Source: a virus
Lineage: Duplodnaviria > Heunggongvirae > Uroviricota > Caudoviricetes
Length of the DNA: 48,428 nt
Direction: 5' to 3' (one strand)
IMG/VR virus record: IMGVR_UViG_3300045988_145381
The position numbers and the translations under genes are program-made. Shown in pieces: positions 1 through 48,428 of this stretch. The stretch's first letter is position 1. Every line of letters starts with the position of its first letter. The notes under the pieces were generated by a model. The model ran no database searches, was not told where the DNA came from, and saw only the letters and a list, made by a program, of their open reading frames with translations.

Positions 1-128
1 GTTGACACCCTCGCATAACCATATTGCATACTTTCTAAACCGCGATTGTTGCTAAAAGCGGGAAAAAATATCGTTCAGACGACACAGAGGCAATTCGCAA
101 AAACCTCGGTTTACAGGAAACGGTAAAT
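1..128. repeat. 128-bp sequence identical to 48301..48428 (circular contig overlap)
   Basis: First 128 nt of the window recur exactly at the 3' end; the boundary coincides with the invertase crossover site. Confidence 0.9.
103..127. promoter_or_regulatory. DNA-invertase crossover site, left inverted repeat (gix/cix-like)
   Basis: acctcggtttacaggaaacggtaaa is the perfect reverse complement of 3155..3179; it lies about 75 bp upstream of the invertase start (wrap-around). Confidence 0.75.
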
Positions 129-1064
129 CAGGCTTCTGGCGCATTACAGAAAAACCAGAACGGCGCAGATATTCCGGGAAAAGATACCTTCACCAAAAAT
201 ATTGGGGCCTGCCGCGCATATAGCGCATGGCTGGATATTGGTGGCGATAGTCAGGTCTGGACAACCGCGCAATTTATTTCGTGGCTGGAGAGTCAGGGAG
301 CATTTAACCATCCTTACTGGATGTGCAAAGGCTCATGGGCTTATGCAAATAATAAGGTCATTACAGATACAGGTTGCGGAAATATTTGTCTTGCAGGTGC
401 TGTGGTGGAAGTTATTGGCACTCGCGGCGCAATGACCATACGCGTTACCACGCCGAGCACGTCCAGCGGTGGAGGAATTACTAACGCTCAATTCACTTAT
501 ATTAATCATGGTGATGCTTACGCTCCTGGCTGGCGACGAGACTACAACACGAAAAATCAACAACCTGCATTTGCTTTAGGGCAAACAGGAAGCACTGTCG
601 GAAATGATAAAGCTGTTGGCTGGAACTGGAATAGCGGGGTCTATAACGCAAATATTGGTGGCGCATCGACATTAATCCTCCACTTCAATATGAATACGGG
701 GAGCTGCCCTGCTGCACAGTTCCGCGTGAATTACAGAAATGGCGGAATCTTTTATCGTTCAGCGCGTGATGGTTATGGCTTTGAAGCTGACTGGTCAGAG
801 TTTTACACCACAACCCGCAAACCCTCTGCGGGAGATGTTGGTGCATATACGCAGGCAGAATGTAACTCAAGGTTTATTACAGGTATTCGCCTTGGCGGTC
901 TGTCATCTGTTCAGACATGGAATGGTCCCGGCTGGTCTGACAGGTCAGGTTATGTCGTTACGGGTTCAGTTAACGGAAACCGTGATGAATTAATTGATAC
1001 AACTCAGGCAAGGCCAATTCAGTATTGCATTAATGGAACGTGGTATAACGCGGGGAGTATTTAA
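104..1064 (+). CDS. silent alternative tail-fibre C-terminal cassette (no own start; fused to the constant part after inversion)
   Basis: Frame is open from 39 to 1064 without an upstream ATG; encodes ...LGLQETVN..., matching residues 454-461 of the expressed 792-aa fibre; C-terminal INGTWYN motif shared with the expressed fibre. Confidence 0.65.
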
Positions 1065-1066
1065 TT

Positions 1067-1600
1067 ATGATGCACTTAAAAAATATTACTGCTGGCAACC
1101 CTAAAACAAAAGAGCAATACCAGCTAACGAAACAATTTAACATCAAATGGCTTTACTCTGAGGACGGAAAAAACTGGTATGAGGAACAAAAGAATTTCCA
1201 GCCAGACACTTTGAAAATGGTCTATGACCATAACGGCGTTATTATTTGTATTGAAAAGGATGTTTCAGCAATTAATCCGGAAGGCGCAAGCGTCGTTGAA
1301 TTACCTGATATTACAGCAAATCGCCGTGCTGACATTTCGGGTAAATGGATGTTCAAAGATGGCGTAGTGGTAAAACGAACTTATACCGAGGAAGAGCAGA
1401 GGCAACAGGCGGAAAATGAAAAGCAAAGCCTGCTACAGCTCGTCAGGGATAAAACCCAGCTATGGGACTCACAGCTACGGCTGGGCATCATTTCCGACGA
1501 GAATAAACAAAAATTAACCGAGTGGATGCTCTATGCGCAGAAAGTCGAATCTACAGACACCTCCAGCCTGCCAGTAACATTTCCCGAACAACCTGAATGA
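1067..1600 (+). CDS. tail fibre assembly chaperone (Tfa), partner of the silent cassette
   Basis: 177-aa ORF directly after the alternative cassette; clear paralog of the 175-aa ORF at 1629..2156 (MMHLKNI.AGN.KT.EQY.LTK...). Confidence 0.7.
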
Positions 1601-1603
1601 GAC

Positions 1604-1630
1604 AAGGCCCGATAGCGGGCCTTAATTTTT
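1604..1630. terminator. hairpin terminator between convergent tfa genes
   Basis: aaggccc/gggcctt stem followed by a T-run, between the two convergent tfa ORFs. Confidence 0.5.
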
Positions 1631-2156
1631 ATTCAGGCTTTTGTGGCCATTCAGGATTTGCCGTATCCACACGGCTGACCAGAACACTGTAGCGTTCCCA
1701 TGACTCCAGTCGTGCGCGCTCCTCATCCGTCGCCATATTCAGCCTGACAGCGCGTTCCAGTGGCTGAATAACGCTTTCTGCTTCGGAAAGTAACGCGGCC
1801 TTTTGTGATTCGGCCTGTTGTTGCTGTTCGTCAGCCGTATAAATCCGTTTAACCACAGCTCCGTCCTTAAACATCCACTTCCCTGAATCATCGGCACGAC
1901 GATTGGCTGTTATATCGGGAACCTCAACGACGCTAAAGCCTTCAGGGTTAAGCGTAGAGGCATCCTTGGTGATAGCGACAATAATATTATTTTCATCGTA
2001 AACAATCTTTATTGTGTCTGGCTGAAAGTTTTTCACTTCCTCATACCAGTTTTTTCCGTCCTCAGAGTAAAGCCAGATAACTCCGTGTTTCTTTGTTAAT
2101 TCGTACTGCTCAAGTGTTTTAGCGTTACCCGCTTTAATGTTCTTTAAGTGCATCAT
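1629..2156 (-). CDS. tail fibre assembly chaperone (Tfa), expressed orientation
   Basis: 175-aa ORF immediately downstream of the tail fibre gene; paralog of 1067..1600. Confidence 0.75.
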
Positions 2157-2157
2157 A

Positions 2158-4536
2158 TTAAACGCTCGCTACATTATACCAGGTGCCATTTATATACTTT
2201 TGAACGGGTCTGTAATAAACGCCCGCTATATTATCGGCAGAGTTGGACCCTGTATCCTGAACATTAATACCAGACAATACATGACCTGACGGGCACTGGA
2301 AATTCCATGTTTGCCAGTTGTTCACTCCATAATATTGCTGTGAACCAAGTCGAACATCTTTCACATATCTGGAATCAAAATTGCCATAGTTGCCGGGAAT
2401 AACTTGCGCACCGCAAAGCCAGTTTCCGTTATTATCCATGTACGCCTGACCATCGGTGCCATTGGCTGTCCTTGAATTATTAATCATGTAGATGCCAAAT
2501 TGCTTGTTCCCCAGTCCACCTATCATGAACTTGCGGTCGGCGTGATTCTGGCGAAGCAACGCCTGAGCGCTATCAGTGTTAACTATATTTTTCCCAAAGA
2601 TAGCGTTGTTATCGCGCATCTGAATCCACATACCATTACTGCTGTTAATAGCAAAACGGTCTGAAAGTGTCTCCCCTGAAACATTAAGACCACGCCCCAT
2701 CGAAACAGCGCCAGTAGCGTTATTAATCCATAATGGCCTTAATCCGTTATAAGTCCCCATGTTGTCACCGGAGTTTGTCAACATGAAGTATGTATTTGAA
2801 CCATCATTACGAATAAAGAATCCGTAATTACCATAAGCAATACGTAGGCCGTTTGCTGATTTTGATATGACTTCGCCATTTACAATGGCATTGACAAGAA
2901 CATACAAAGCATCCCATTTAAGATTCATCAGGTCTTTTGTTGTGGTACTTTGTTTGCTTCTCCATTTGAAATATTCATTGCCGTTGTCGCCTGTCTCAAA
3001 CCACATGTATGAATCAGTGTCACCATCGGCATCATTTTTAAATCCAATCTTCGCCCAGTCAGTATTTCGAATCCAGGCAAGGATTGAGTCATTTTCAAAA
3101 GTAAGCCCGCCGGACAAGGTATCGCCTGTCTTTTGAACGGCGTTACCAGCCTTGTTTACCGTTTCCTGTAAACCGAGGTATTCGATAACGGCAGCAACGG
3201 TCGATTTCGCAAGAATATCCCGCCCGACTTTTGTCAGGGTTGCCAGGCTGGCGACATCATTCCCCGTAAAATACGGAAACTTGTCTGCCGCAGTAGCAAG
3301 CCCGGCCAGCGCCGTCAGGGTGGCATCTTTCGGTTGCTTACCCGCAAGCGCGTTAGTCATGGTGGTCGCAAAATTCGGGTCGTTTCCCAGAGCCGCCGCT
3401 AACTCGTTCAGCGTATTCAGTGCGTCAGGTGACGAGTCCACGAGGGCAGCGATCGCAGCCATAACGAAAGCCGTGCTTGCGATTTGGGTATTATTCGTTC
3501 CCTGTCGCGCAGTTGGCGTTGTTGGCGTTCCGGTCAACGCAGGACTGTTTAAGGGCGCTTTCTTGTTCGTTTCATCCATTACCGCCTTGACCGCTTTCGA
3601 TGTCGCGGCCAGTGTTTCAGACGTGCTGTTGGTGGAACTACTGAGCTGAGTTATTCCCCTTACAGTCAGTGAAGCTACAGGCACATTTGTTATCTGCTCC
3701 CACGAATGCGTGTGATTGGACGGAGCCTTTCCGGCCGCAAGATCATACGCTGCCTTAACAGCCTTTGGTGTTGCTGCTAGCGTTTCAGACGTGCTGTTGG
3801 TGGCACTACTGAGCTGAACAATCCCTTTTCGCGCTGTGGTAGCGTCCTGTGCGGTGTATTTGCCATTAGCCAGGTCATATGCTGCCTTAACAGCCTTAGG
3901 CGTCGCAGCAAGCGTTTCAGACGAGCTATTGGTGGCGCTGCTAAGTTGAACAAAGCCTTTTGAGGTTAAAGTTGCATCAGGATGATTACGTGATTGTTCA
4001 TGTTTCACAATGGCTTGCTTAAGCCGCTTTGCTGAAACAGCAAGGGAATCATCTGTACCGTCATCAATTTCTTGTTCATTGGCAAATCTTGCAACCCCAA
4101 CAACAGTTTCGGTTGCGGGAGGATTAATAAACTCAATATCACCAAATGTAATATTTTTAGTATCAAGAGTCTTGATTGCTATGTCACTTGATATTAAAGC
4201 AATAGTAGATGATGCTTTATTTATTATTGCTTGTTCTTGCGAGTATACAGCAAACAACGTTCCCTTATTTGTATACAATCCTATTGTATGGACAACATAC
4301 TCATCTTTACTATCATCCTTCGCCGTTACATGAATTGTATCAGGGGAAACAACTTTGCCACCTATTGTGGTAAGTCGTTTTATTTCGTTTGTTATATTTG
4401 TTTGTGAAGTTGACGTGACATAATATCTACTACCTAAACCAACAGAAACAATCTCAACTTTATTTGTTCCTGTTTTGTTGGCATTAACCAGCTCCTGACG
4501 CCCGGCGTCAGTCATCGTAAATAATAATTTACTCAC
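2158..4536 (-). CDS. tail fibre protein (constant N-terminal part plus currently expressed variable C-terminal part)
   Basis: 792-aa ORF with three tandem ~33-aa repeats (G[IF][27 protein letters not shown]) typical of phage tail-fibre repeats; crossover site inside the ORF; followed by tfa. Confidence 0.85.
3155..3179. promoter_or_regulatory. DNA-invertase crossover site, right inverted repeat (inside tail fibre ORF)
   Basis: Perfect reverse complement of 103..127; falls at codons ~453-461 of the fibre. Confidence 0.75.
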
Positions 4537-4566
4537 GCTTAATTCCTTGAATTAACAAATTGCGAA

Positions 4567-5148
4567 TTAGCACTCGCCAATTAATCGTACATAAGACACA
4601 GGCTGACAAGCACCAACAATACCGACACCACCAGAAACATTGGCTGCTTGCGAAAATGTAAATAATGTTCTTGCCGACTTTGCGCTCTTGATACTTCTTA
4701 ACGTATCTTCCAACATCTCTTTCGAAGGAACGGCACCATCAAAAGAGTTAATCGAAGCAACAATTGAGGCTGTATATGGTTCGCCAGGTGGTGATGTTTC
4801 AAACCATTCTGTTATGTTTACCTCTCCACCCAAGCTATTTACTACATCTTCAACCGCTGCCCTTGTACCCTTTATTCGCTTTGTTCGTATTATTGATTTA
4901 AAAACAGAACGCTTTAACGATACAGGCCAACTATCCCTCCATGTATCAGCATTCCATTGCCAAGCTAAATGATCGAGAACAACTGAGTCCAGGTTATCAA
5001 CAACGCTATATATTTCTGTCTTATATATTAAATTGTTAATTGCTTGTAGTTCATCATCAATAGCTTTCGACATAGCTATCACGTTGGGATCTCTAGCTAA
5101 GTTAGGAGGTAAAACATCCAACAAGCTAACATTAAAGATATCAGCCAT
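4567..5148 (-). CDS. tail/baseplate protein (P2 gpI / Mu gp48-like)
   Basis: 193-aa ORF between the baseplate J-like gene and the tail fibre, the conserved position in P2/Mu-type tail modules. Confidence 0.5.
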   Translation of the reverse strand: MADIFNVSLLDVLPPNLARDPNVIAMSKAIDDELQAINNLIYKTEIYSVVDNLDSVVLDHLAWQWNADTWRDSWPVSLKRSVFKSIIRTKRIKGTRAAVEDVVNSLGGEVNITEWFETSPPGEPYTASIVASINSFDGAVPSKEMLEDTLRSIKSAKSARTLFTFSQAANVSGGVGIVGACQPVSYVRLIGEC

Positions 5149-6265
5149 CCTCTAACCCCGCATACTGGCAATTTATATTTCTCTCTCTGGCGACCTGCGT
5201 CTCTCCAACTACAGTAAATACAGGACTTGATATTTCTAATCTTTTAGCCCCGGCATTTTTTAAACGTTGAATAATTTCATCTGGATTTATATCTCTTCCC
5301 ATAACCGAACGTTGCCATTGTTTATACTCATCAAGAGCTTTCTCAACCTCACTTTGAATTAACGTTGTTCTGTTTTTGTCCGATGAGTTAATCCAGTATT
5401 TAATTATTATATCGTATTCAATGCTCTCTGGTTTCTTAACAAGAACTTTATCTGTGAATGGTCGAATATTAGTTGCAGAGAGAACGCTATTTATCTGCTC
5501 TAATAGTTCATCAGAAGGTATATCCCCGTTCTCTAACAAAGAACGGATTTCTACAGTTCCGGGCGATGGTGTATATACATTCACATCTTTTATATTCTGA
5601 TTGGCTGTTCTTGTCCAATATTTATAAGAATCCTCCGGCCCTGCTGTAGACAGTTTTTCCGGCGACAGTTTTATTCTTTCAGCATAATTATCATCTGACT
5701 CTGTATCAGCACCAGAATTAGATGTTGTTAGATTCCTTACGCTGGAAACATACGGCAACGGAGTCACCAACTCGTTTATTTGCCCAGGTAAAAATCCATT
5801 CCCCGATAAGCCAGGTATAACAGCATATCCTGAGACTGTACCAACTGTTTTCCCAGCTGGTATTTCCAACAAAACATCTGTTTGGAAAATAACACTATTT
5901 CCAGTTGAAATTTGAGTGCCAGCAGGTATTGTATATATCCCCGATAATTTTGTTGACAGATTAAACTCAAATGTAGTCAAGGCAGATTGAGCTTCCAGCC
6001 TAGGCGTATCCGTCAGATAGCCTATATGGTCGAGATATTCACCCCCACCATATGTAAGAAGGTTTTGTTTTGCAGAAAAATCGATAGCTTTTCTTTGCTG
6101 TATAATAATCTCACACAATGACAAGATGAATAATCTACGTGGATCAGCAGGTGCTAATGTTTCACCTGTTATACTCTCAAAAGCCCTGATTGAACGAGTT
6201 GTTATATCAGTCGGGTTAGAATCTGCGAAAGTAATATCTGGCAAACCACCGCGCGGCAACGTCAT
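5141..6265 (-). CDS. baseplate protein J-like
   Basis: 374-aa ORF, translationally coupled to its neighbours, in the J position of a P2/Mu-type baseplate cluster. Confidence 0.6.
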   Translation of the reverse strand: MTLPRGGLPDITFADSNPTDITTRSIRAFESITGETLAPADPRRLFILSLCEIIIQQRKAIDFSAKQNLLTYGGGEYLDHIGYLTDTPRLEAQSALTTFEFNLSTKLSGIYTIPAGTQISTGNSVIFQTDVLLEIPAGKTVGTVSGYAVIPGLSGNGFLPGQINELVTPLPYVSSVRNLTTSNSGADTESDDNYAERIKLSPEKLSTAGPEDSYKYWTRTANQNIKDVNVYTPSPGTVEIRSLLENGDIPSDELLEQINSVLSATNIRPFTDKVLVKKPESIEYDIIIKYWINSSDKNRTTLIQSEVEKALDEYKQWQRSVMGRDINPDEIIQRLKNAGAKRLEISSPVFTVVGETQVARERNINCQYAGLEDG

Positions 6266-6582
6266 TCTCTAACTCCTATCACAAGTTTTGGCCTAATAAA
6301 ACCATCAGAAACGTCCGTTCTTTCAAAAGTAACAGAATGGATAATCGCTCTAGGCTCAAACTCACTAATTTTTTGAATTATTTCTCGTGTTGCTGTAGCA
6401 ATAAAAATTGGGCTAGGGCTATCAACAAGACTTGAATTAACTCCTAATTTTCTGGCATATGGTACAGTGCCAATCTGAGTATTAATAATAGTAGAGACAT
6501 TTTGCAAAACTTCTTCTACAACTGTTTTGGGCGACCAATCAATCGAGTAAGAAGGTGATGATATGGTAAACGTATTATTCAT
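6262..6582 (-). CDS. baseplate protein (P2 gpW / T4 gp25-like)
   Basis: 106-aa ORF; size and position upstream of J. Confidence 0.5.
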   Translation of the reverse strand: MNNTFTISSPSYSIDWSPKTVVEEVLQNVSTIINTQIGTVPYARKLGVNSSLVDSPSPIFIATATREIIQKISEFEPRAIIHSVTFERTDVSDGFIRPKLVIGVRE

Positions 6583-7046
6583 AATAATTTACCTAACGCA
6601 CTTCTAGTTTTTGACTCTATATTGCCAGCAATATCAACTAATGCTTCTTTCAGAGAGGTCTGTCCGACTTCCTGTAATTTAATGCCGACGATAATCACTC
6701 GTGGATTCCCAGTTGGACCGAAATAAGTCCATGATTCCTCTATATCTGTAATTATAAAATTACCAAAATACTGAATACCAATTACAACAGGATTTACTTC
6801 CTGAATTGATTGCATTGTCCTAAGTAATGAAAGCGCAGCCAATGGAACAATGCCAAGTGTTGTATCCAACCGCATATTAAAACTAACTTCATCCAGATCT
6901 GGACCTATATCCTCCAGAACAGGTTTAAGCCCAATAACATCATGGCGCGCTACACGACGCTTTGACGTCCTTTTAAAATTGTTGAACGTATTCACCACTA
7001 TTGATGAGGCAACAAAAGGCATTGTACCAAGCATACCCACAATCAT
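6579..7046 (-). CDS. putative baseplate-associated protein
   Basis: 155-aa ORF coupled between the V-like and W-like genes; no recognisable motif. Confidence 0.3.
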   Translation of the reverse strand: MIVGMLGTMPFVASSIVVNTFNNFKRTSKRRVARHDVIGLKPVLEDIGPDLDEVSFNMRLDTTLGIVPLAALSLLRTMQSIQEVNPVVIGIQYFGNFIITDIEESWTYFGPTGNPRVIIVGIKLQEVGQTSLKEALVDIAGNIESKTRSALGKLL

Positions 7047-26480: not shown

Positions 26481-26891
26481 TTACGCAGGGATCAAACGGA
26501 GGCAGCCGTTATTTACCTCAATACGAGAGTATTCCGGCTTACCATCAACGATTCCGGTAATGACAAGTTCGCCATCAGACGAGCATTCTTCTTTGTCGTC
26601 TTCAAGTACCGCGCCTTCTGGCAAATCAACACAGGCAAAAACAGGGCAGCCAGGATAACGATCATCTTCCATCGCAATCAGCATCGACTCACCGAACCAC
26701 TCTGTGGTAGCACGGCCATCAGCCGCCTGATAGTGAATCAGATACTGGTTTTCGCCATTTGCATACTGAGCACGGGCTTGAACTTCTCCCCATTCGTCAC
26801 TGATACGCATTGTTACCAGTTGGGATAATTCAAACTTAAACGGAACAGACTCTGCACCAATGGCAATCGGTTTATCTTCTTTCTTTTCCAT
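26481..26891 (-). CDS. hypothetical acidic protein (start trimmed to the Met with an aggtga Shine-Dalgarno)
   Basis: ORF 26481..26960 with probable start MEKKEDKPIAIG...; an upstream hairpin terminator overlaps the longer ORF. Confidence 0.4.
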   Translation of the reverse strand: MEKKEDKPIAIGAESVPFKFELSQLVTMRISDEWGEVQARAQYANGENQYLIHYQAADGRATTEWFGESMLIAMEDDRYPGCPVFACVDLPEGAVLEDDKEECSSDGELVITGIVDGKPEYSRIEVNNGCLRLIPA

Positions 26892-28041: not shown

Positions 28042-28307
28042 TCATCATCTCCTGCCGCACATACAACCTCACAAAAAACATCAGCGGAATGTTTCTCCTT
28101 GAACGAATGACGCTCAAAACCGCACTCAATATCAGGCGCAAAAACATCCACCACATACGGTCTTTCAGAATGTTGGTTTTCCCAACGATAAACCGTAGTG
28201 ACGTTGAAATGTTTTAACGCTTCACGGAACTCAACGCTGCCCGTCAGGTTTTTTGAGGTCAGGTATTGCAGGAGGTTTTTTACTACTTCACGGTCTTGTA
28301 CTTTCAT
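28038..28307 (-). CDS. hypothetical protein
   Basis: 89-aa ORF directly downstream of copy 1 of the conserved promoter-leader element. Confidence 0.45.
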   Translation of the reverse strand: MKVQDREVVKNLLQYLTSKNLTGSVEFREALKHFNVTTVYRWENQHSERPYVVDVFAPDIECGFERHSFKEKHSADVFCEVVCAAGDDE

Positions 28308-28314
28308 CGGGTTA

Positions 28315-28425
28315 TCTCCGGTTTAACCAGGGCGGGTATCGCTCGGTTTCGGGTATAACCTTAGGAAATTTTTTCCCACCTGTAAAGCACTTTTTATATA
28401 AATCTATAATTATATAATTCTATGA
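28315..28425 (-). promoter_or_regulatory. conserved promoter-leader element, copy 1
   Basis: Near-identical to 34827..34940 and 44347..44457; gene-direction read gives TTTACA-17bp-TAAGGT, a -10-like TATACC, a conserved leader and ggaga Shine-Dalgarno; AT-rich palindrome upstream. Confidence 0.6.
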
Positions 28426-29007
28426 CACTTGCCAGAGAGCATCATGCAACTGGATACCTCCGTTGCACTGGTTGCCCCAGCCATGCCAGCCATCAGGTAA
28501 ATCACCGCGAGCAAATAGCTCAATACGAGGAACATCACCTAACAGTCTTACCAGCTTGTCACGAACCACATCAGGCTTCCGTGAATGTTCCAGACGAGGC
28601 GATGTAAACGACTGAATGATCCCCGCATCAAGACGTGTCGGTAGTTTGCCTTTCACTGCAAACAAGCAATCTTCACTGTTTGCACGAGTCATATGCCCCA
28701 TCCCCATCACCAGCTTATCTGGTTGTCGGCTACCACATTTGTTCCATGTGAAGCCCTTCATGGTCATAAGCCTGAATCCCCATGCTTTCACCACCAGCAA
28801 CGCTTCTTCTGGCTGAGTCGGAACCCACCACATGGCCAACAAACACGATTCAGGATTAGCAAGCTGCCAGACAGGAATACGAGCAATATCCTCAGCTTTC
28901 ATCGTTGGATACTTAAAACCAGCTCCACGATTCCCATCCTTACACTTATCTTTGTATTCCCAGGGGGGATCTGCATAAATCAGATTAAACAATGCAATTG
29001 CCTCCAT
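28420..29007 (-). CDS. MT-A70-family N6-adenine DNA methyltransferase
   Basis: 195-aa ORF with the DPPW catalytic motif (...IYADPPWEY...). Confidence 0.7.
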   Translation of the reverse strand: MEAIALFNLIYADPPWEYKDKCKDGNRGAGFKYPTMKAEDIARIPVWQLANPESCLLAMWWVPTQPEEALLVVKAWGFRLMTMKGFTWNKCGSRQPDKLVMGMGHMTRANSEDCLFAVKGKLPTRLDAGIIQSFTSPRLEHSRKPDVVRDKLVRLLGDVPRIELFARGDLPDGWHGWGNQCNGGIQLHDALWQVS

Positions 29008-29315: not shown

Positions 29316-29391
29316 TGGTGGCCCCTACCGGATTTGAACCGATGACCGTGCGATTATGAGTCGCCTGCTCTAACCACTGAGCTAAGGGGCC
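29316..29391 (-). tRNA. tRNA, anticodon CAU (Ile2-like or Met)
   Basis: 76-nt cloverleaf GGCCCCTTAGCTCAGTGGTTAGAGCAGGCGACTCATAATCGC...GGTTCAAATCCGGTAGGGGCCACCA with encoded CCA; 5' half matches E. coli ileX-type tRNA as recalled from memory. Confidence 0.85.
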
Positions 29392-32452: not shown

Positions 32453-33020
32453 TTACCCATACCCACGGGTTAGATAGCCAGTTCTCTTGCCCGTAAATAC
32501 CGCGCCAGATATCACCAAAGCCAACGCGATAAACCGCTTCCGGCGGTGTAATCTTGTACGTCGCCGGAGATGCGCCTTCCGCTTTAGCATCTGCCTCGCT
32601 CATGTCATGCAGCCGTTCCACACGCACGTCGGTAATTTCCAGCAAAATACGCGAAGCCCAGCGCGGCATGTGAATCGACGGGGTCCAGCCCTCAGCTGGC
32701 TTGCTACTATCTGAGTAATCAGCCTTGTAATCACACAGTTCAGAAGCCAGAGAGACACCATCTTTGATTTCCTGAATGACATCGTTATCCAGCCAAAAAG
32801 CGTTGAATGTTTCACGGACCCATATGCGATCACCAACGTTACCGAACGGGCATAAACCATGTTCCGGTGCATCCATAACGTGGGTATAGACACCATTGCG
32901 TTTCTTTGTCGGTTTACGGATAACCAGGCAGTTATCGGCCCTGACATTTTTTACAGGTCGGCGAGTCTGCGTTTTCCTTCCTTCGAGGATGGCTCTGACC
33001 ATCTCATCATTAAAAATCAT
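32415..33020 (-). CDS. ASCH/PUA-like domain protein (putative)
   Basis: ORF 32415..33107 trimmed to MIFNDEMVRAILEGRKTQTRR..., an ASCH-like N-terminal signature recalled from memory. Confidence 0.45.
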   Translation of the reverse strand: MIFNDEMVRAILEGRKTQTRRPVKNVRADNCLVIRKPTKKRNGVYTHVMDAPEHGLCPFGNVGDRIWVRETFNAFWLDNDVIQEIKDGVSLASELCDYKADYSDSSKPAEGWTPSIHMPRWASRILLEITDVRVERLHDMSEADAKAEGASPATYKITPPEAVYRVGFGDIWRGIYGQENWLSNPWVWVIEFKRIQGATSE

Positions 33021-33040
33021 GCCGCGCTCTTTCACCTTGC

Positions 33041-33761: not shown

Positions 33762-34829
33762 TCAGGCTTTCAATAGCGATTCTTTCAGATATCGGGCATC
33801 AGCCAGGGCGTTTGGAGTAATCTTGCGAACCCATGCATTACGGGTTGGACTCCACTTAAAGGCGCGTGATTTAAGCAGCGAACGAATGTTTGCCTCTGGT
33901 TTGCCAGGGAAATAAAACAGGATGCGGTTATCCTCTGGATCTATCTCCATAGAAAAGCCGTCGTATTCTTCGCGCTGTGCTCCTGTTACAGACTTGACCG
34001 ATTCAAGCTCCTTAATACGGCTCTGTAGTCGTTTGATTTCGGCGTTATTGTTGCTCAGTGCGTATGAAGGGAATCCGATGCGCCCACAGAAATCTCCGGC
34101 CAGTAACTCTTTGGCTTCGCTTTCTGTAAACCTGAGATCGATTAATGCAGAAAGCTGCTGTAATTGGTCTTTTTTGTATTTGCGAATGGCCTTATTTGCG
34201 GCCTTCATTTTGACGTGTGACTTCATGCAGCCTTGCAGTTTACGAAGCAACTTAAATAGCGCATCAGGATCATCAGACGAAATTCCATTACGACCAACAC
34301 CTGCGGCTTTGCTCTCGTAGTGTGATGCTTTACTTTCGCATTCAACAAACGCTTTTCTGAATAACGCATCAGCTTTAGACAAACGGCGGCGATGGCCTTT
34401 CGCGCTATAATGGTCAACTAAAATCGGCTGGCCTAACGGGATCACATCCAACAGGTCATGCGCTCGCTTATGCGCTACCGCTCCTTCTTTTCTGGCTTTT
34501 TCTGCACGAGCAATATATCGGGCAAGACGCGCGTTCTGGCGTTCCTGATAGGTGTTTACGTAATCATCTCCGCGCTGCTGCTGTTCAAGCCATGCTTTGC
34601 GCAGATCTTCTGTTACGTCCACCAGCTCCGCAGGGATACAACCAGTTTGGGCTTCATAAGAGTAACCATCCTCATAGATGCGCCCATCGTCTTCAACAAA
34701 GAAAAAGGTTTCGTGCTCATCGCTTTTGACCATACGACCATTAACATGGCGTAATAGGTAGCCAGTATCAGTGCTTAACAGGCTGTTAGGGTTGTTGATC
34801 CAGTCAGAAATAATTACTTGTTTATTCAT
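33762..34829 (-). CDS. DUF3560-like protein
   Basis: 355-aa ORF; C-terminal ...FKWSPTRNAWVRK... resembles the DUF3560 signature recalled from memory; downstream of promoter-leader copy 2. Confidence 0.5.
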   Translation of the reverse strand: MNKQVIISDWINNPNSLLSTDTGYLLRHVNGRMVKSDEHETFFFVEDDGRIYEDGYSYEAQTGCIPAELVDVTEDLRKAWLEQQQRGDDYVNTYQERQNARLARYIARAEKARKEGAVAHKRAHDLLDVIPLGQPILVDHYSAKGHRRRLSKADALFRKAFVECESKASHYESKAAGVGRNGISSDDPDALFKLLRKLQGCMKSHVKMKAANKAIRKYKKDQLQQLSALIDLRFTESEAKELLAGDFCGRIGFPSYALSNNNAEIKRLQSRIKELESVKSVTGAQREEYDGFSMEIDPEDNRILFYFPGKPEANIRSLLKSRAFKWSPTRNAWVRKITPNALADARYLKESLLKA

Positions 34830-34940
34830 CAGATTTCTCCGGTTTAACCAGGGCGGGTATCGCTCGGTTTCGGGTATAACCTTAGGAAATTTTTTCCCAC
34901 CTGTAAAGCACTTTTTATATAAATTATATAATTATATATT
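34827..34940 (-). promoter_or_regulatory. conserved promoter-leader element, copy 2
   Basis: Near-identical to copies 1 and 3; lies between the Q-like gene and the DUF3560-like gene. Confidence 0.6.
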
Positions 34941-38790: not shown

Positions 38791-39459
38791 ATGGAGTCTC
38801 GACAAATGACTATCTCTGTAGGTATTTTCAACGGAAAAGGCGGCGTAACCAAATCAACAATTGCCCGTGCTTTAGCAGTTGCTTATGCAAAGGCTGGCTG
38901 GAATGTATGCCTGATCGATATGGATGTGCTTAACGGAACGGTAACGCGTTGGGTACAACGCAGAATGGCCAACAATATCGAACCAGCAATCGCGGCGCAG
39001 CCGTGCGGCACACCATCACAAGTCCAGAAAATCATCGAATCAGAAGTATACGACCTGGTTATCGTCGATGGCGGTGCCTACGCATCTGAATCAGTACCGA
39101 AGCTCTCTGAATTTCTGGATATGGTTATTTTGCCAACCAGATTCTCTACCGATGACCTGGAAACCACCGTTAACACTGCTCACGGCATCGTTAAAAAGGG
39201 TGTACCAATCAAGAAAATTTGCATGGTGTTTTCCGGCGCGGCTGAAAACGAAGCTGACTATATTGAAGCCCAAGAGTACCTGGCTAATACGCCATACTTT
39301 GTTGTTGATAAGTACATTCCCCACAAGCCAGCTCTGAGCAAAGCTCAGGATAAGGGCTTAAGCCTCATTGAGTGCTCATACGTTGCGCCACGCAAAAAGG
39401 CAGACGACGTTATTCAGGGGATTATCAACCAGCTTGAGGCTCTGACTACTGCCGCGTAA
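38791..39459 (+). CDS. ParA/ParF-type partition ATPase
   Basis: 222-aa ORF with deviant Walker A (GIFNGKGGVTKST); start may be the second Met at 38806. Confidence 0.7.
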   Translation: MESRQMTISVGIFNGKGGVTKSTIARALAVAYAKAGWNVCLIDMDVLNGTVTRWVQRRMANNIEPAIAAQPCGTPSQVQKIIESEVYDLVIVDGGAYASESVPKLSEFLDMVILPTRFSTDDLETTVNTAHGIVKKGVPIKKICMVFSGAAENEADYIEAQEYLANTPYFVVDKYIPHKPALSKAQDKGLSLIECSYVAPRKKADDVIQGIINQLEALTTAA

Positions 39460-39967: not shown

Positions 39968-39990
39968 AACCATAAAAAAGGCCCCCGAAG
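39968..39990 (-). terminator. rho-independent terminator (minus-strand orientation)
   Basis: ggcccccgaaggggcc hairpin with a T-run on the minus strand. Confidence 0.5.
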
Positions 39991-40001
39991 GGGCCTAATC
40001 G

Positions 40002-40124
40002 CTACTTGCTGCTAATGTTTATCGTCACATTTAGAGCGTTATCAGTAATCTTCCAACCCTCCCCATGTGGCGTAAACAAAGCTCCAGTAACAACGATAAA
40101 AATACACATACAGTATTTTTTCAT
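40002..40124 (-). CDS. small hydrophobic peptide (40 aa, MKKYCMCIFIVVTGALFTPHGEGW...)
   Basis: Read directly from sequence; Shine-Dalgarno-like aaggg upstream; terminator 39968..39990 immediately downstream. Confidence 0.25.
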   Translation of the reverse strand: MKKYCMCIFIVVTGALFTPHGEGWKITDNALNVTINISSK

Positions 40125-40520
40125 TGTATGGCCCTTACAGGCCGTTTCACGGCATCCCCACCGACGAAAACAACGCGAGAGCAAGCACGGCTGCTTGTGC
40201 TTGCATGTACGGCAACGGAGAATCCTCCCCTAAAGTCGGTGCCCGGGTGCGAATCGGCGGGAAGGTCCACAGGTATTTTACGATTATTTTAAGATTAGTA
40301 ATAGGAAAGAAATTAAACGAAAAAACTCGTTTATTTTCACAAAATCAGTAACCTACCCACAATCTGTGAGTTTGCAGGCACAACAAGAACCACAATTTTT
40401 TGAAGCATAATAGTGGACTATTATTACCTTTTGGGTAAAATTAACTTGCTGCTTGTGCTTGCGTGGTTGTTTATACAACAACGTAATGCTGAAAGGACCG
40501 CGAATCCGATCAGCACGAAA

Positions 40521-40549: not shown

Positions 40550-40690
40550 TTTCTGCCTACCAATAAACCCACGCTATGTGGTTGTCTCTGTTAAAATCCC
40601 GCCGTATTGACATGAATGCGCCATTGGTGGACACTTTCCGAGCCGTAGCAAAATCTACGGTCGGGATTGGCGTCCCGATTGCACAATGGC

Positions 40691-40716
40691 GCATACCGCG
40701 TTAGCGGTTTTTTTAT
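40691..40716 (+). terminator. intrinsic terminator-like hairpin in the ant leader region
   Basis: accgc-gtta-gcggt stem-loop followed by 7 T. Confidence 0.45.
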
Positions 40717-40876
40717 GCGTAAAGCACTGCTACACCCAAATTATGGTGGGGCGTGCGGGGGCGGAGAAATCCGCGCCGGGTTTGTCATTGTGCCGGTTAC
40801 GCCAACCCTGTACGTCTCACCACCATATTGATTGGCGTCATTGGTGGTGATAGTTCCTTTAATCGGAGATATCACA

Positions 40877-41068
40877 ATGACAAACCTACCCCATGACTAT
40901 TACGTCAACCTCGTAAAGATCCTTCTCAAGAAAGCCTCATACGCCGATAAATTCCGCCTGGCTGAAATCATCGAGCGCGAAGCTATGCGCATCGCCAGCA
41001 ACGATAACGCTGTTTCTGACGCAAAAATCTCCCTCGTAACCAAAGTAGTTATGGGAGGTGCAAAATGA
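40877..41068 (+). CDS. small protein overlapping the ant start (Icd-like position)
   Basis: 63-aa ORF (MTNLPHDYYVNL...) within ORF 40832..41068; ATGA overlap with the ant-like gene. Confidence 0.35.
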   Translation: MTNLPHDYYVNLVKILLKKASYADKFRLAEIIEREAMRIASNDNAVSDAKISLVTKVVMGGAK

Positions 41069-42246
41069 AAACGCTTCCGACCGTTAACACCCTACAGCCT
41101 ATCCTGCATAACCAGCTCCCCGTTATCACTACTGAACTACTGGCGCAATTGTATGGAACCGAGCGCCAACGTCTGACAAACAATTTCAATAGAAACAAGG
41201 AACGTTTTATAGAAGGTAAACACTTTTTTAGGATAGAAGGTAAAGAGTTACGAGAGTTGAAGAACAAAAACTCTTTAAGAGTTCCTGTGAGAGTAGTTAA
41301 CGAACCATCTTTAAGAGGGTTACAAATTCCCCCGAAAGTTCGCTCCCTCATCCTCTGGACAGAACGCGGGGCTGCACGTCACGCTAAAATGCTTGAAACT
41401 AACCAAGCGTGGGATGTGTTCGAACGGCTGGAAGACTGCTATTTCAACCAGAACGCGCAAACGGCCGCGACCGTAACCGTCTCACCAAACAATGCTCGTG
41501 AGGTTGTCGATACGCTCAACGCCAAACCGATGTTTTACATTAAAGTGTGCAACAACGAGCCACTCACAACCTCAGCCGATGTTGCCCAGGCATTCAGCAC
41601 CACAAACAATTCCATCGTTATGGCCATCGATGCGTTACGCATTCCTCGCACAGCTGCGGCGCGTCATTTCTTTAAAGAGCAACGACCGTTGGAAGGAAGC
41701 GACCGCGAAATAACAATCTATCGCATGACAAAAGACGGATTTACCTTGCTCATGGAAAGTATCGACGGTCCAGGCGTGAAGGATATCAAGCTGGCCTACA
41801 TTGAAGCCTTTAACGCTATCAGCAGCGTGTTAAAAACACAGTACGAGCGCGATCTGGCTAAACGACTGTACCAGGAAAAAACGATTATCCGCGCGGCAAC
41901 AGAGCATAATCGGCTATTAACGGAACCGAACTACAGGAAGGAACTAATCAAGGAGTTTGACAAGGCAACAGGGAAAACCAAAGCGGCGCTAAGTCTGCCA
42001 GCAATGACTCAGGAAAATGTGATATCAGCCTTACTTCTTGATCTGCTCAGAAACGCCAGAGCACTTATCAGCTTTGACGAAAACCTGAATCCTCAGCTCA
42101 AGCTACTACCACCGACAGGCAAAGTAGTCGACCAGGCTGATCACAACAGCATACTCAGCGTACTGGATGCAAACCTGCCAGCCAGGACACTACAGGATCT
42201 GATAAAAACATGTGCTGATAAGCTGGCACAGAAAAGCAGACCATAA
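41065..42246 (+). CDS. ant: antirepressor (ORF6N/KilA-N-like plus Rha/Ant-like domains)
   Basis: 393-aa ORF; N-terminal ...ITTELLAQLYGTERQRLTNNFNRNKERFIEGKHFFRIEGKELREL... and central Rha/Ant-like region; hairpin terminator at 42252..42271. Confidence 0.65.
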   Translation: MKTLPTVNTLQPILHNQLPVITTELLAQLYGTERQRLTNNFNRNKERFIEGKHFFRIEGKELRELKNKNSLRVPVRVVNEPSLRGLQIPPKVRSLILWTERGAARHAKMLETNQAWDVFERLEDCYFNQNAQTAATVTVSPNNAREVVDTLNAKPMFYIKVCNNEPLTTSADVAQAFSTTNNSIVMAIDALRIPRTAAARHFFKEQRPLEGSDREITIYRMTKDGFTLLMESIDGPGVKDIKLAYIEAFNAISSVLKTQYERDLAKRLYQEKTIIRAATEHNRLLTEPNYRKELIKEFDKATGKTKAALSLPAMTQENVISALLLDLLRNARALISFDENLNPQLKLLPPTGKVVDQADHNSILSVLDANLPARTLQDLIKTCADKLAQKSRP

Positions 42247-43958: not shown

Positions 43959-44339
43959 TTACTTAACGAGGAATAAAAATGGTTTATTGTTCGGCGGTGT
44001 AATCGGGGCTGGCTCGCTTTTGCTCATGCGATCAGTGTACCAGGCCAACTCCTTGTCAAAGTAAGCCTGATTAAAATAGGCCATGAATGTAGTTTCAAAT
44101 CCATAACGACCGCTAATACGCAGCATCTGATTGCCGTTCTCTGTTTCCAGATATACCTGGGCACGTTCCTGATTCTCCTTCAGCCAGGTTAAAGCCTCAT
44201 CGCATGAGGACACACGATACTCATCATCGTAGCAGTCATCGATGCGGCTTGAGGAAGAACGGCAAATCACGCCAACAGAACCAGCCAGGATAGTTTGAAT
44301 TTTAAGGAAAGCGTTTTTGCGGATTTTAATCATGCTCAT
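43959..44339 (-). CDS. hypothetical protein
   Basis: 126-aa ORF directly downstream of promoter-leader copy 3. Confidence 0.45.
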   Translation of the reverse strand: MSMIKIRKNAFLKIQTILAGSVGVICRSSSSRIDDCYDDEYRVSSCDEALTWLKENQERAQVYLETENGNQMLRISGRYGFETTFMAYFNQAYFDKELAWYTDRMSKSEPAPITPPNNKPFLFLVK

Positions 44340-44346
44340 CGGGTTA

Positions 44347-44457
44347 TCTCCGGTTTAACCAGGGCGGGTATCGCTCGGTTTCGGGTATAACCTTAGGAAT
44401 TTTTTTCCCACCTGTAAAGCACTTTTTATATAAATATATAATTATATAATTCTATGA
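44347..44457 (-). promoter_or_regulatory. conserved promoter-leader element, copy 3
   Basis: Near-identical to copies 1 and 2, including the upstream ttatataattctatga motif. Confidence 0.6.
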
Positions 44458-44502
44458 GCACAAAAAAGCCCCTTTGCAACAGGGGCTTATCATTCGTTCT
44501 GA

Positions 44503-44802
44503 TCAGATGTTAAACGCTATTCGTTTTCCTGTGGGAAGCTCAACATCCAGGCTTAATTTGCCTCCCATAGCTTCAACGTAACGCTTTAATGTCGCCAGCT
44601 TTAAATCATTTCCGCGCTGCTCCAGCTTTGTTACTGCTGGCTGGCTTATACCCATCGCCTCAGCAACCTGTTTTTGTGATAACTGGAGTTCTTCACGCAT
44701 CATCTGCAAGCCGACCTCAAGAATCATCTCATCTGCCATTTCTTTAATTCGCGCCTGGCTTTCCGGTGAACGGCTGGCAATCGCCTCATCTAATGTTCTC
44801 AT
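44503..44802 (-). CDS. higA: HigA-like HTH antitoxin
   Basis: 99-aa ORF with XRE-type HTH (...LSQKQVAEAMGISQPAVTKLEQ...), overlapping the stop of the upstream toxin-like gene. Confidence 0.65.
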   Translation of the reverse strand: MRTLDEAIASRSPESQARIKEMADEMILEVGLQMMREELQLSQKQVAEAMGISQPAVTKLEQRGNDLKLATLKRYVEAMGGKLSLDVELPTGKRIAFNI

Positions 44803-45155
44803 TACTTGCTCTCCAGTGTGTTCAGATGTGCTGCAAACTCATCCTCAGCTATACGCACCAGTTTTTCATAAAACCGCTTATCGTTACTTTTGTCTCCTGC
44901 ACAAAGAACGATGGCCCGGCGAATCGGATCGAACGCATAAAAGGCTCTTATCGGACGGCCAGAAAACTGAACGCGAAGCTCTTTCATATTTTTGTACCGA
45001 GAACCTTTTACGGTATCGGCATATGGCCTGGGTAACTCAGGTCCGTAAACCTGTAGCTTTTTCAAATCAGCCAAAACCTTTTCCTGAAGAGCGTCTTCTT
45101 GCTCATTTAGCCAGTCGTCAAATCGCTGGCTAAAAAGTACCGTCCACATGCTCAA
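44802..45155 (-). CDS. higB: HigB/RelE-family toxin-like protein
   Basis: 117-aa ORF upstream of and coupled to the HTH antitoxin (toxin-first order); two TATAAC-N6-GTTATA-type palindromes at 45159..45204. Confidence 0.6.
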   Translation of the reverse strand: MSMWTVLFSQRFDDWLNEQEDALQEKVLADLKKLQVYGPELPRPYADTVKGSRYKNMKELRVQFSGRPIRAFYAFDPIRRAIVLCAGDKSNDKRFYEKLVRIAEDEFAAHLNTLESK

Positions 45156-46611: not shown

Positions 46612-47451
46612 TTAATGTTGGAGTGATTTCCAGGTCTTTCTTAGCCTGTTATAACGCTGCTCAACGAGGGAGCGTAAATATGCAAGGTCAGCACCAGGAT
46701 ACATGCCATCAGCAAATTCCTGGCTAACCTCTCTAGTGATTTGATGGCGAAGTTCGGCCTCTCCCTTTTCCTGAACAAGACGCGCAGCTCTCTCCGCTGC
46801 TTTCTGTTTTGCCTTTATCTCTCTGGCCGTCTTCCTCTGACGCCATACATTCTCCATCTGCTCCTGAATAACAATACGCTTATAATCAGCCTCCGTTATC
46901 GCTTTTTTAAGCCGTTCGCTATTCTTCGCATTGAAGTAATTAAGTTTCTGGCTAACCGCACGTCTCCATGCTTGTTCAGTAATACCAACTGTTTCCAGCA
47001 GTTGATCACGAATCTCGATTTTCGCTGGCCAATACTGTTTATTCACCCGATCCCAGCGACGTTCATAATCAATAAAACCTAACTCTTTCAGTTGCGACAA
47101 CGCCCTTGTACAGCGCGTTATAGACTTGTTCCCAGCTTCGGATACGGTAGACAGGCCGCAAAAATCAGCCAACGCCTCAGCACTGGCCAGAACCCGCTTA
47201 GAAATGATGTTTACATGGTGCAAAATCGCAGCAATCACAGCATTAATCGCCCGACGACGATGCTCGTTTATCCGGCGTTTCCGCTCTGACGGTTGATTAA
47301 CGTAGAACGCAACCTCACACGTAAGATCACGACCATTAATGCGCTGTAAAGCATCAGATAACACCAGCGGCAGCTTGTGCGTATGGTGCTTTGGAGGCTG
47401 GAACTCCGGCGACAAATTACAAACGTAAGCTGAACGTAGAGACGGCATTGG
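46612..47451 (-). CDS. repA: IncFII-type replication initiator RepA
   Basis: ORF 46612..47604 trimmed to MDRPMPSLRS...; strong resemblance to R100/R1 RepA1 as recalled (...KSITRCTRALSQLKELGFIDYE...). Confidence 0.75.
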   Translation of the reverse strand, partial: PMPSLRSAYVCNLSPEFQPPKHHTHKLPLVLSDALQRINGRDLTCEVAFYVNQPSERKRRINEHRRRAINAVIAAILHHVNIISKRVLASAEALADFCGLSTVSEAGNKSITRCTRALSQLKELGFIDYERRWDRVNKQYWPAKIEIRDQLLETVGITEQAWRRAVSQKLNYFNAKNSERLKKAITEADYKRIVIQEQMENVWRQRKTAREIKAKQKAAERAARLVQEKGEAELRHQITREVSQEFADGMYPGADLAYLRSLVEQRYNRLRKTWKSLQH

Positions 47452-47494
47452 TCTATCCATATGTTCGCTCTTGCGTCCACGGAAAACCAACGTA

Positions 47495-47576
47495 TAATGG
47501 GAGTTGTCGAGGCGCCCATGGTTAGTTGTTGGTTTTCCTTTCCGTGGATGTCGCAAGAAGCCCGCAGATTTATCTG
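47495..47576 (+). ncRNA. candidate antisense RNA to the repA leader (CopA-like)
   Basis: Plus-strand TTGCGT-16bp-TATAAT promoter at 47461..47488, long imperfect stem, terminator hairpin gcccgcagatttatctgcgggc plus ttttt at 47548..47576. Confidence 0.45.
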
Positions 47577-47775
47577 CGGGCTTTTTGTTTCCATATCTGG
47601 TCACTTTTCAACCAGACACCCACAATCATAACCACGTTACGTGGTTTTAAGAGAACTCTACCACAACACTTTCGGTCATGCACGAAGTCTCTCACTGATC
47701 GAACGATAATCCACCAGTAAAAGGATCTAAATTGGATCTCGTTTTGCGAGCATCATACTACTGGCCTAACTCCAG

Positions 47776-48330
47776 TCAATGATTCCCAGCCGGAAACCTG
47801 CGGTAAAGCGTGGATAAGGTAACATCGAAGATAATCGCTATCCGCTTACGTGAAACACCATTCGCAATAAGCCTTCCGATCTGTTCCCATTGCTCTGGTG
47901 CCAATTTTGAGCGGCGTCCTCCTATCCTGCCGTTAGCCCTTGCCACCGCCAATCCTGCACGCGTTCTTTCAATCATATTTTCCCGCTCCATCTCTGCGAC
48001 TGCACTCAGCATCGTGTAGGCAAAGCGGCCAATTGAAGTGCTAATTTTTATCCCTTCCGTAATCGAAATAAACTCAATGTTGTTTGATAAAAAATAGTTT
48101 AGTAAATCAACAAGATGAATCAGAGAACGCCCCATTCGGTCCAGCTTCCAGACAATAACCGTATCGCCCGGCCGTAACACCTTCAGTAGCTTATCAAGTC
48201 CTGGTCGTTTTGATTTAGCACCGGATATTTTATCTTCAAAAATCCGGTCACATCCTGAACTCCTGAGCGCCTCCAATTGTAATTCCAAATTCTGGTCAAA
48301 AGTTGACACCCTCGCATAACCATATTGCAT
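47776..48330 (-). CDS. serine DNA invertase (Hin/Gin/Cin/Pin family)
   Basis: 184-aa ORF MQYGYARVSTFDQNLELQLEAL...DRMGRS... with catalytic Ser motif and C-terminal HTH; start wraps to window position 30; crossover site upstream. Confidence 0.9.
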   Translation of the reverse strand: MQYGYARVSTFDQNLELQLEALRSSGCDRIFEDKISGAKSKRPGLDKLLKVLRPGDTVIVWKLDRMGRSLIHLVDLLNYFLSNNIEFISITEGIKISTSIGRFAYTMLSAVAEMERENMIERTRAGLAVARANGRIGGRRSKLAPEQWEQIGRLIANGVSRKRIAIIFDVTLSTLYRRFPAGNH

Positions 48331-48428
48331 ACTTTCTAAACCGCGATTGTTGCTAAAAGCGGGAAAAAATATCGTTCAGACGACACAGAGGCAATTCGCA
48401 AAAACCTCGGTTTACAGGAAACGGTAAA

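Follow-up and report, generated by a model that had tools for sequence, protein, structure and literature searches.

The 48,428-nucleotide (nt) virus record IMGVR_UViG_3300045988_145381 (Caudoviricetes), hereafter the window, which denotes the whole stretch of DNA that was analysed, very probably carries, at positions 107..3175, an active invertible segment of the Gin/Cin type. The segment is a homolog of the G segment of phage Mu and resides on a ~48-kilobase (kb) circular phage-plasmid with a P2/Mu-like contractile tail. It holds two C-terminal cassettes of a tail fibre, Sv and Sv', each accompanied by its own assembly chaperone, U and U', respectively, and only one of these faces the constant part of the fibre gene, Sc. 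The anatomy and homology of the segment are those of the Mu module, either cassette fuses in frame to Sc, and near-identical elements have inverted, with a crossover confined to 10 base pairs (bp). The mechanism of the switch is already known: inversion of the G and C segments has been textbook knowledge from the 1970s-80s onward, and the module described here is more than 93% identical to that of Mu. The features are listed in Table 1.

Crossover sites, fibre cassettes and invertase

As stated in the original prediction, which was made from the sequence alone, 103..127 (ACCTCGGTTTACAGGAAACGGTAAA) and 3155..3179 match each other perfectly as reverse complements. By chance, an inverted pair of 25 nt without any mismatch would be expected ~1e-6 times in a sequence of the same size and composition (48.3 kb), and when mismatches are permitted, the repeat arms reach 52 nt at 79% identity. 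The 17-nt core of the repeat, TTCCTGTAAACCGAGGT, has no other copies in the window even at three or fewer mismatches (0.13 expected by chance).

The crossover sites were defined by alignment to the Mu sites and by a scan of every 26-mer on both strands. The two 26-bp sites are in inverted orientation and are imperfect palindromes of 12-bp half-sites that share the same central dinucleotide, as is typical of the family; the half-site symmetry of both is 7-8 of 12, as in Mu. Compared to Mu gix (TTCCTGTAAACC-GA-GGTTTTGGATAA), the right site contains two mismatches and the left site three, all of them in the outer half-site, and the likeness to gix spans the whole 26 bp, including the portion beyond the perfect repeat. 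The left site has a second copy at 48395..48420, inside the terminal overlap of the contig. Further crossover sites, as in a multi-inversion system of the p15B Min type, are ruled out: only two 26-mers in the window have eight or fewer mismatches to Mu gix. Strand exchange is predicted to occur at the central GA of each site, not at the inner end of the repeat at 127, so that the invertible segment would extend from 107 to 3175. Since the ..ETVN peptide is encoded by both cassettes alike, the perfect repeat continues for 8 nt beyond the inner end of the site.

The fibre is encoded by an open reading frame (ORF) of 792 amino acids (aa) at 2158..4536 (-), whose domains are three Phage_fiber_2 repeats, Gp34_trimer within the variable part and, as a weak match, a tail-collar domain at the N-terminus. 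The right repeat arm indeed falls, as originally proposed, on residues 453-461 of this protein (YLGLQETVN). The silent cassette was predicted to read through the same peptide, and it does: frame 3 of the plus strand has no stop between nt 66 and 1064 and reads ..NLGLQETVN.., with LGLQETVN in common with the expressed fibre, and the first in-frame start codon does not occur before 321. When 107..3175 is flipped in silico, Sc joins Sv' in frame and yields an uninterrupted 772-aa fibre followed by U'. The constant 461 residues are kept, and 331 C-terminal residues are exchanged for 311, in agreement with the earlier estimate that inversion would swap about 330 C-terminal residues together with the chaperone. 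Thus, the arrangement is that of a host-range switch, with one crossover site located within the fibre ORF, either cassette in frame, a Tfa chaperone specific to each cassette, and no start codon for the silent one.

The original prediction further described two divergent cassettes, each consisting of a fibre C-terminus and a Tfa chaperone. The content of the cassettes was described correctly, both chaperones matching Caudo_TAP with E-values of ~1e-37, but their transcription is convergent, and Sv with U and U' with Sv' are divergent in sequence only. The two chaperones share 59% aa identity. In a pattern scan of 1..4700 for promoters and terminators, the matches, including the terminator-like hairpin between U' and U, were no more numerous than in shuffled sequences.

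Sc is 96.8% identical at the aa level to residues 1-469 of the fibre of Yersinia phage vB_YpM_39. It contains three tandem-like copies of a ~93-nt sequence at 3569..3961 (-), 72-83% identical to each other and spaced by 168 and 132 nt, which match up with the three Phage_fiber_2 repeats; the repeated elements annotated in Sc of P1 are analogous.

Across the contig junction, the start codon of an invertase gene lies 75 bp from the left repeat arm and 64 bp from the edge of the 26-bp gix-like site, and the gene is transcribed away from the invertible segment. Its product has the makeup of a serine recombinase belonging to the DNA-invertase subclass, namely a resolvase domain with Ser9, a C-terminal helix-turn-helix domain and a size (184 aa) close to the ~185-195 aa typical of it. 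It aligns over residues 2-181 with the Gin crystal structures 3uj3 and 4m6f (E-value about 1e-61), Ser9 of the 'RVST' motif included, which is the catalytic nucleophile of the Gin invertase (PMC3575834). It shares 99.5% identity with 'hin' of Yersinia phages vB_YpM_39/44. NCBIfam offers no equivalog model for the invertase, the fibre or the chaperones, all matches being under the cut-off.

The 5' end of the invertase gene contains two Fis-like 15-mers, at 48295..48309 (nt 22-36 of the gene) and 48246..48260 (nt 71-85), with centres 49 bp apart and 105 and 154 bp, respectively, from the centre of the left site. Enhancers of this class usually hold two Fis sites ~48 bp apart. Similar Fis-like motifs are present at homologous positions in Mu gin, and the Cin enhancer annotated in the P1 record, at nt 19-90 of cin, matches the position of those in the window. 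In the Hin system, the distance from site to enhancer is ~100 bp (PMC3798978). The two 15-mers are a plausible candidate for an enhancer to which Fis would bind, judging from position and from a degenerate motif.

Under the reaction scheme expected for this family (PMC3798978, PMC3575834), invertase dimers would bind the two inverted 26-bp gix-like sites, one at codon 454 of the fibre ORF and the other between the silent cassette and the invertase gene. Together with the enhancer, bound by host Fis, the dimers would form a synaptic tetramer, a supercoiling-dependent invertasome with two Fis dimers. The tetramer would cleave both sites at the central GA via Ser9, with phosphoserine links on all four strands, rotate by 180 degrees and religate. 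By analogy with the characterized systems, dependence on Fis and the enhancer, as well as the chemistry of the invertase, would be the same here. The promoter and the 5' constant part of the fibre gene would stay fixed, so that the cassette facing them is expressed: Sv with U would give the 792-aa fibre, and Sv' with U' the 772-aa fibre, whereas the other cassette would lack a start and hence be silent. The progeny would then be of two kinds that differ in receptor specificity, and this mixture would amount to bet-hedging on host range. S and S' of Mu are established determinants of alternative host ranges, and the identity of Sv' and Sv, along with their chaperones, to Mu S'/U' and S/U (G(+)/G(-)) leads us to expect two receptor specificities in this element as well.

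Table 1. Features of the invertible segment, its recombination machinery and the contig ends
Feature	Coordinates	Strand	Remarks
Left repeat arm	103..127		Overlaps the gix site in part and adds 8 nt of conserved coding sequence (..ETVN)
Right repeat arm	3155..3179		Fibre codons 453-461
Left crossover site, gix-like, 26 bp, invertase side	94..119	-	TTCCTGTAAACC-GA-GGTTTTTGCGAA; predicted exchange dinucleotide 106-107
Right crossover site, gix-like, 26 bp, within fibre ORF	3163..3188	+	TTCCTGTAAACC-GA-GGTATTCGATAA; predicted exchange dinucleotide 3175-3176 (codon 454)
Predicted invertible segment, Mu G-segment homolog, 3,069 bp	107..3175		Collinear with the Mu G(+) reference orientation
Constant N-terminal fibre part (Sc)	3176..4536	-	Three Phage_fiber_2 repeats; no homology to Mu Sc
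Expressed fibre C-terminal cassette (Sv)	2158..3175	-	Residues 454-792; sequence-variable from 462; Pfam Gp34_trimer
Tail-fibre assembly chaperone U (expressed cassette)	1629..2156	-	Caudo_TAP, E-value 1.5e-37; 93% aa identity to Mu U
Terminator-like GC-rich hairpin with T-run, between convergent U' and U	1604..1623	+	Pattern match only
Tail-fibre assembly chaperone U' (silent cassette)	1067..1600	+	Caudo_TAP, E-value 3.5e-37; 97.7% aa identity to Mu U'
Silent fibre C-terminal cassette (Sv')	128..1064	+	311 codons beyond the shared peptide; Pfam gp37_C
DNA invertase, small serine recombinase, 184 aa	47776..48330	-	Resolvase, E-value 3e-44; HTH_7, E-value 3e-13
Candidate recombinational enhancer	48246..48309	-	Two Fis-like G-N13-C 15-mers, invertase nt 22-85; motif scan
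Terminal overlap of the circular contig, 127 nt	1..127 = 48302..48428		Ends at the last base common to both orientations

Homologous segments and both orientations among relatives

The original prediction likened the segment to the Mu G and P1 C segments, and this likeness proves to be homology of the same module, with 91-96% nt identity, gix-type sites and an adjacent invertase with the Gin fold. In a megablast comparison to phage genomes, 100..3188 of the window shows nt identities of 95.0% with the D108 G segment, 93.4% with the G segment of Mu and about 91-92% with the C segments of P1, D6 and P7. The comparison of the cassettes with known S variants, which had been proposed as a check, places each of them next to its Mu counterpart: Sv' is 98% identical to Mu S' at the aa level and 96% at the nt level, and Sv is 87% identical to the C-terminus of Mu S at the aa level. 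The nt identity of Sv to Mu is 94% over 2345..3154, and its poorly conserved distal tip (2158..2344) is, along with U, the least conserved part of the module relative to Mu (86% or below).

The nt similarity to Mu and D108 begins at the outer edge of one 26-bp site (100) and ends at that of the other (3188). Given that the similarity is bounded by the crossover-site edges, and that Sc and the invertase are unrelated or distant, respectively, the G segment thus behaves as a self-contained mosaic module. The invertase falls outside the Gin/Cin cluster of classical systems, although the G segment that it serves is 93-96% identical to that of Mu. Unrelated phages (Mu, P1/D6, P2-like prophages and the present family) might even have passed whole fibre-cassette modules to one another by invertase-mediated intermolecular exchange at gix sites, a scenario that we consider rather unlikely. 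If it were true, the hybrid sites, whose inner half is of the Mu type and whose outer half is their own, would be scars of capture, and the system would be a cassette-exchange device in addition to a switch.

The order Sc-[gix Sv U / U' Sv' gix]-invertase, with the invertase gene reading away from the segment, is common to the window and the G segments of Mu and D108, as are the core of the crossover sites, the segment length of ~3 kb and the catalytic Ser9 (PMC3575834). Unlike in Mu, however, Sc of the window is unrelated and consists of 461 aa, compared to ~170 aa; the invertase shows 54% identity to Gin; the outer half-sites differ, and the Sv tip and U are less conserved. The replicons differ as well, the host of the segment here being a RepA/ParA phage-plasmid, whereas Mu is a transposing phage. 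The Cin systems of P1 and P7, and that of D6, share with the window a plasmid prophage as the carrier and homologous cassettes, about 91-93% identical over the part in common; the enhancer annotated in the 5' portion of cin corresponds in position to the candidate in the window. In contrast to the window, the C segment of P1 is 4.2 kb long and has long inverted repeats, cin faces the segment, and cixL overlaps the 3' end of cin.

Other systems, namely Hin/hix of Salmonella, Pin/P of e14 and Min of p15B, are by description similar in employing a small serine DNA invertase, 26-bp sites and a central 2-bp exchange. Another trait of this family, a Fis-bound enhancer ~100 bp from one of the sites (PMC3798978), is represented in the window by a candidate only. 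Unlike the present system, Hin flips a promoter rather than a coding cassette, and p15B Min has six sites, compared to the two found here.

The close relatives of the window are circular plasmids of ~48-50 kb in many Escherichia coli strains, including ATCC 25922, and Yersinia phages vB_YpM_39/41/44. The ATCC 25922 plasmid, the E. coli plasmid pAPSLC-48K and the three Yersinia phages have the same invertase and the same crossover sites as the window, whereas the C-terminal cassettes of the ATCC 25922 plasmid and of vB_YpM_39 are partly different. In the records of these relatives, the segment is labelled only as 'tail fiber protein / recombinase / hypothetical', never as an invertible element.

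We searched 5,426 complete E. coli genomes for the junctions of both orientations, counting matches at 80% or greater coverage. On the fibre side, the observed junction, Sc-Sv, was detected in 358 genomes and the flipped one, Sc-Sv', in 106; on the invertase side, the respective counts are 12 for the observed junction, invertase-Sv', and 9 for the flipped one, invertase-Sv. The flipped junctions match pAPSLC-48K (NZ_JCDPND010000006.1, 48,524 bp) at 100%. In a whole-replicon comparison, this plasmid is 99-100% identical to the window and collinear with it, with 103..3182 on the opposite strand. The only other non-aligning stretches are 26510..26597, 32675..33040 and 41144..41303, which represent small indels or replacements.

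The clearest case is the 48,488-bp plasmid of E. coli ATCC 25922, which encodes an invertase identical to that of the window in 182 of the 184 positions. Two independent assemblies of this plasmid, NZ_CP009073.1 and NZ_CP158444.1, share 99.97% identity or more, and their sole difference is a 3,071-bp block that is inverted; the annotated fibres are 795 and 816 aa long, and the order of the chaperones is exchanged. In ATCC 25922, position 7 of one inner half-site is C instead of T, and this base travels with the segment, whereas the outer half-sites stay with the flanks. Because the T/C polymorphism moves with the segment, the exchange must occur within AAACC-GA-GGT (AAACCGAGGT), that is, within 10 bp centred on the predicted dinucleotide. 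Sister elements thus occur in both orientations, with the exchange located inside the core of the site. A third record of this strain, NZ_CP032086.1 (pL25922_3, 94,204 bp), contains two tandem copies of the element, with one segment in each orientation. This 'linear plasmid' comprises about two copies of the 48.5-kb phage-plasmid and has many frameshifts near its ends, and is probably a long-read concatemer or an assembly artefact that caught both states. Inversion at these sites, by this lineage of invertases, is documented in nature and within a single strain.

The Yersinia relatives, which plate on Y. pestis, share with the window Sc, the silent Sv'/U' cassette and the invertase. The fibre of vB_YpM_39 (4660..7014 of its record) diverges from that of the window (2158..4536) after residue 469, and the expressed cassettes are only 46% identical, over the last 80 residues. 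This divergence points to cassette replacement within the phage-plasmid family, and the different expressed cassette may be the cause of plating on Y. pestis.

Near-identical copies of the element are present in public databases, and the scientific addition made by the window as such is small. A literature search found no paper on this switch in this phage-plasmid family. Nevertheless, the ~48-kb family, which includes a plasmid of the reference strain E. coli ATCC 25922 and several phages plating on Yersinia pestis, bears an active host-range switch that has gone unannotated. This flip is the only difference between public assemblies of one strain, and records routinely present the silent cassette, incorrectly, as a truncated pseudogene. 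Work on phage-host prediction and phage therapy has to reckon with two fibres per genome of this kind, not one.

The contig break and alternative explanations

The original prediction held that the terminal overlap of the contig ends exactly at the crossover site. The overlap does end at the last base of the repeat, but the predicted exchange point lies further out, at 106-107. At base 128, the observed orientation has T, and the flipped form would have C. An overlap of 127 nt is typical of a circular contig produced by a de Bruijn assembler with k=127. The probability that an arbitrary break falls on either inner end of the repeat is ~4e-5 (2 in 48,301), and a 25-nt repeat, being shorter than k, cannot branch the assembly graph. 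The position of the break therefore implies reads with a second continuation, which suggests that the sample holds both orientations, a conclusion about the assembly graph. The second continuation is best explained by the two orientations and, less likely, by a co-resident variant cassette.

In the latter case, the branch at base 127/128 would reflect two related phage-plasmids with different cassettes on the invertase side, rather than flipping. Cassettes do vary within the family, as shown by the fibre of vB_YpM_39 after residue 469 and by the partial match of the ATCC 25922 plasmid. However, the break is located exactly where the flipped form of the same element diverges (T versus C at 128), and a single clean circular contig was obtained, making co-residence improbable. 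The 127-nt overlap could also be a mere signature of circularisation, as it would appear in any circular contig from an assembler with k=127, and the repeat or the order of the cassettes could have been mis-joined. That dozens of finished plasmids, as well as Mu, D108 and P1, share this architecture argues against a mis-join, so that the repeat does not prove to be the assembly artefact that the original prediction had considered. Coincidence, for its part, would require a chance break at the inner repeat end, at the probability given above, whereas the repeat, far below k, makes no branch by itself. Altogether, we regard artefact or coincidence as highly improbable.

If the segment inverts, homologous recombination between the repeats, dependent on RecA, could be responsible rather than the invertase, given that the arms share 25 perfect and ~52 imperfect bases. 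It is established that 25 bp is at or below the minimum for efficient RecA recombination. Furthermore, the exchange interval in ATCC 25922 consists of the 10 bp at the middle of the gix core, the match to gix covers the full 26 bp, extending beyond the perfect repeat, and a dedicated invertase of the Gin fold is encoded 75 bp away. Inversion by RecA is hardly credible under these circumstances.

Several observations weigh against an active switch in the window. The outer half-sites are unlike each other and unlike Mu gix, from which they are two to three bases off. The invertase is distant from both Gin (54% identity) and Cin (55%), which share 75% with each other. The enhancer is a candidate at the level of the motif, which is degenerate, and nt 19-90 of the invertase gene show 60-64% nt identity to cin and gin, compared to 55% for the rest of the gene. 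Finally, for this very element, we infer inversion from what its 99%-identical relatives show and from where the contig breaks. The state of the half-sites, the invertase and the enhancer would be compatible with a frozen relic, that is, an inherited Mu-like module that no longer inverts (because the invertase is inactive, the enhancer has been lost or the outer half-sites have degenerated) and in which the silent cassette is a fossil. Nevertheless, the invertase ORF is intact, with Ser9 present; neither the silent cassette nor its chaperone is disrupted, and both are 98% identical to Mu S'/U'; and elements with identical sites and a 99%-identical invertase occur in both orientations, even in one strain and in one record. 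The chance that the segment is such a relic appears very slim, and an active invertible segment of the Gin/Cin type remains by far the most probable interpretation.

The phage-plasmid replicon and its other features

The window encodes an IncFII-type RepA (46612..47604, -) along with phage genes and is therefore classified as a phage-plasmid. A ParA-like partition ATPase and a RelE/ParE toxin-antitoxin pair are also present (38791..39459, +, and 44503..45155, -). The structural module is that of a complete myovirus, with terminase, portal, capsid, sheath, tube, tape measure and a P2/Mu-like baseplate; the genes of P2/Mu-type baseplate proteins Tail_P2_I and Baseplate_J are located downstream of the fibre gene. 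We do not claim a group name for this element. Assignment to the pSLy3 phage-plasmid group was considered and dropped: according to the literature, pSLy3 belongs to the SSU5 supergroup and is not this element. A paper on the 'pseudolysogenic' phage vB_YpM_HQ103 was likewise set aside because it deals with a different, 32-kb phage.

Three RNAs were detected by Rfam at the gathering level: isrK, the C4 antisense RNA (an immunity RNA of the P1/P7 immI type) and ryfA. The coordinates of these RNAs and the ORF6N region are 40642..40714 (+), 40739..40827 (+), 41065..42246 (+) and 39974..40270 (-). The C4 RNA is located just upstream of an ORF6N/antirepressor-like gene, and this adjacency suggests a P1-like c4-ant immunity circuit.

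The window further contains three near-identical direct repeats of ~115 nt (28303..28428, 34825..34938 and 44336..44461), with a mean column identity of 87% and a long invariant core. Each of these ends at the ribosome-binding site and start codon of an ORF on the minus strand, and the repeats, which have no match in Rfam, are probably a shared promoter/leader of three operons. Finally, a single tRNA gene with the anticodon CAT is present at 29316..29391 (-); it is identified as tRNA-Met by ARAGORN, whereas in RefSeq the same tRNA of the relatives is annotated as tRNA-Ile, of the lysidine-modified Ile2 type.

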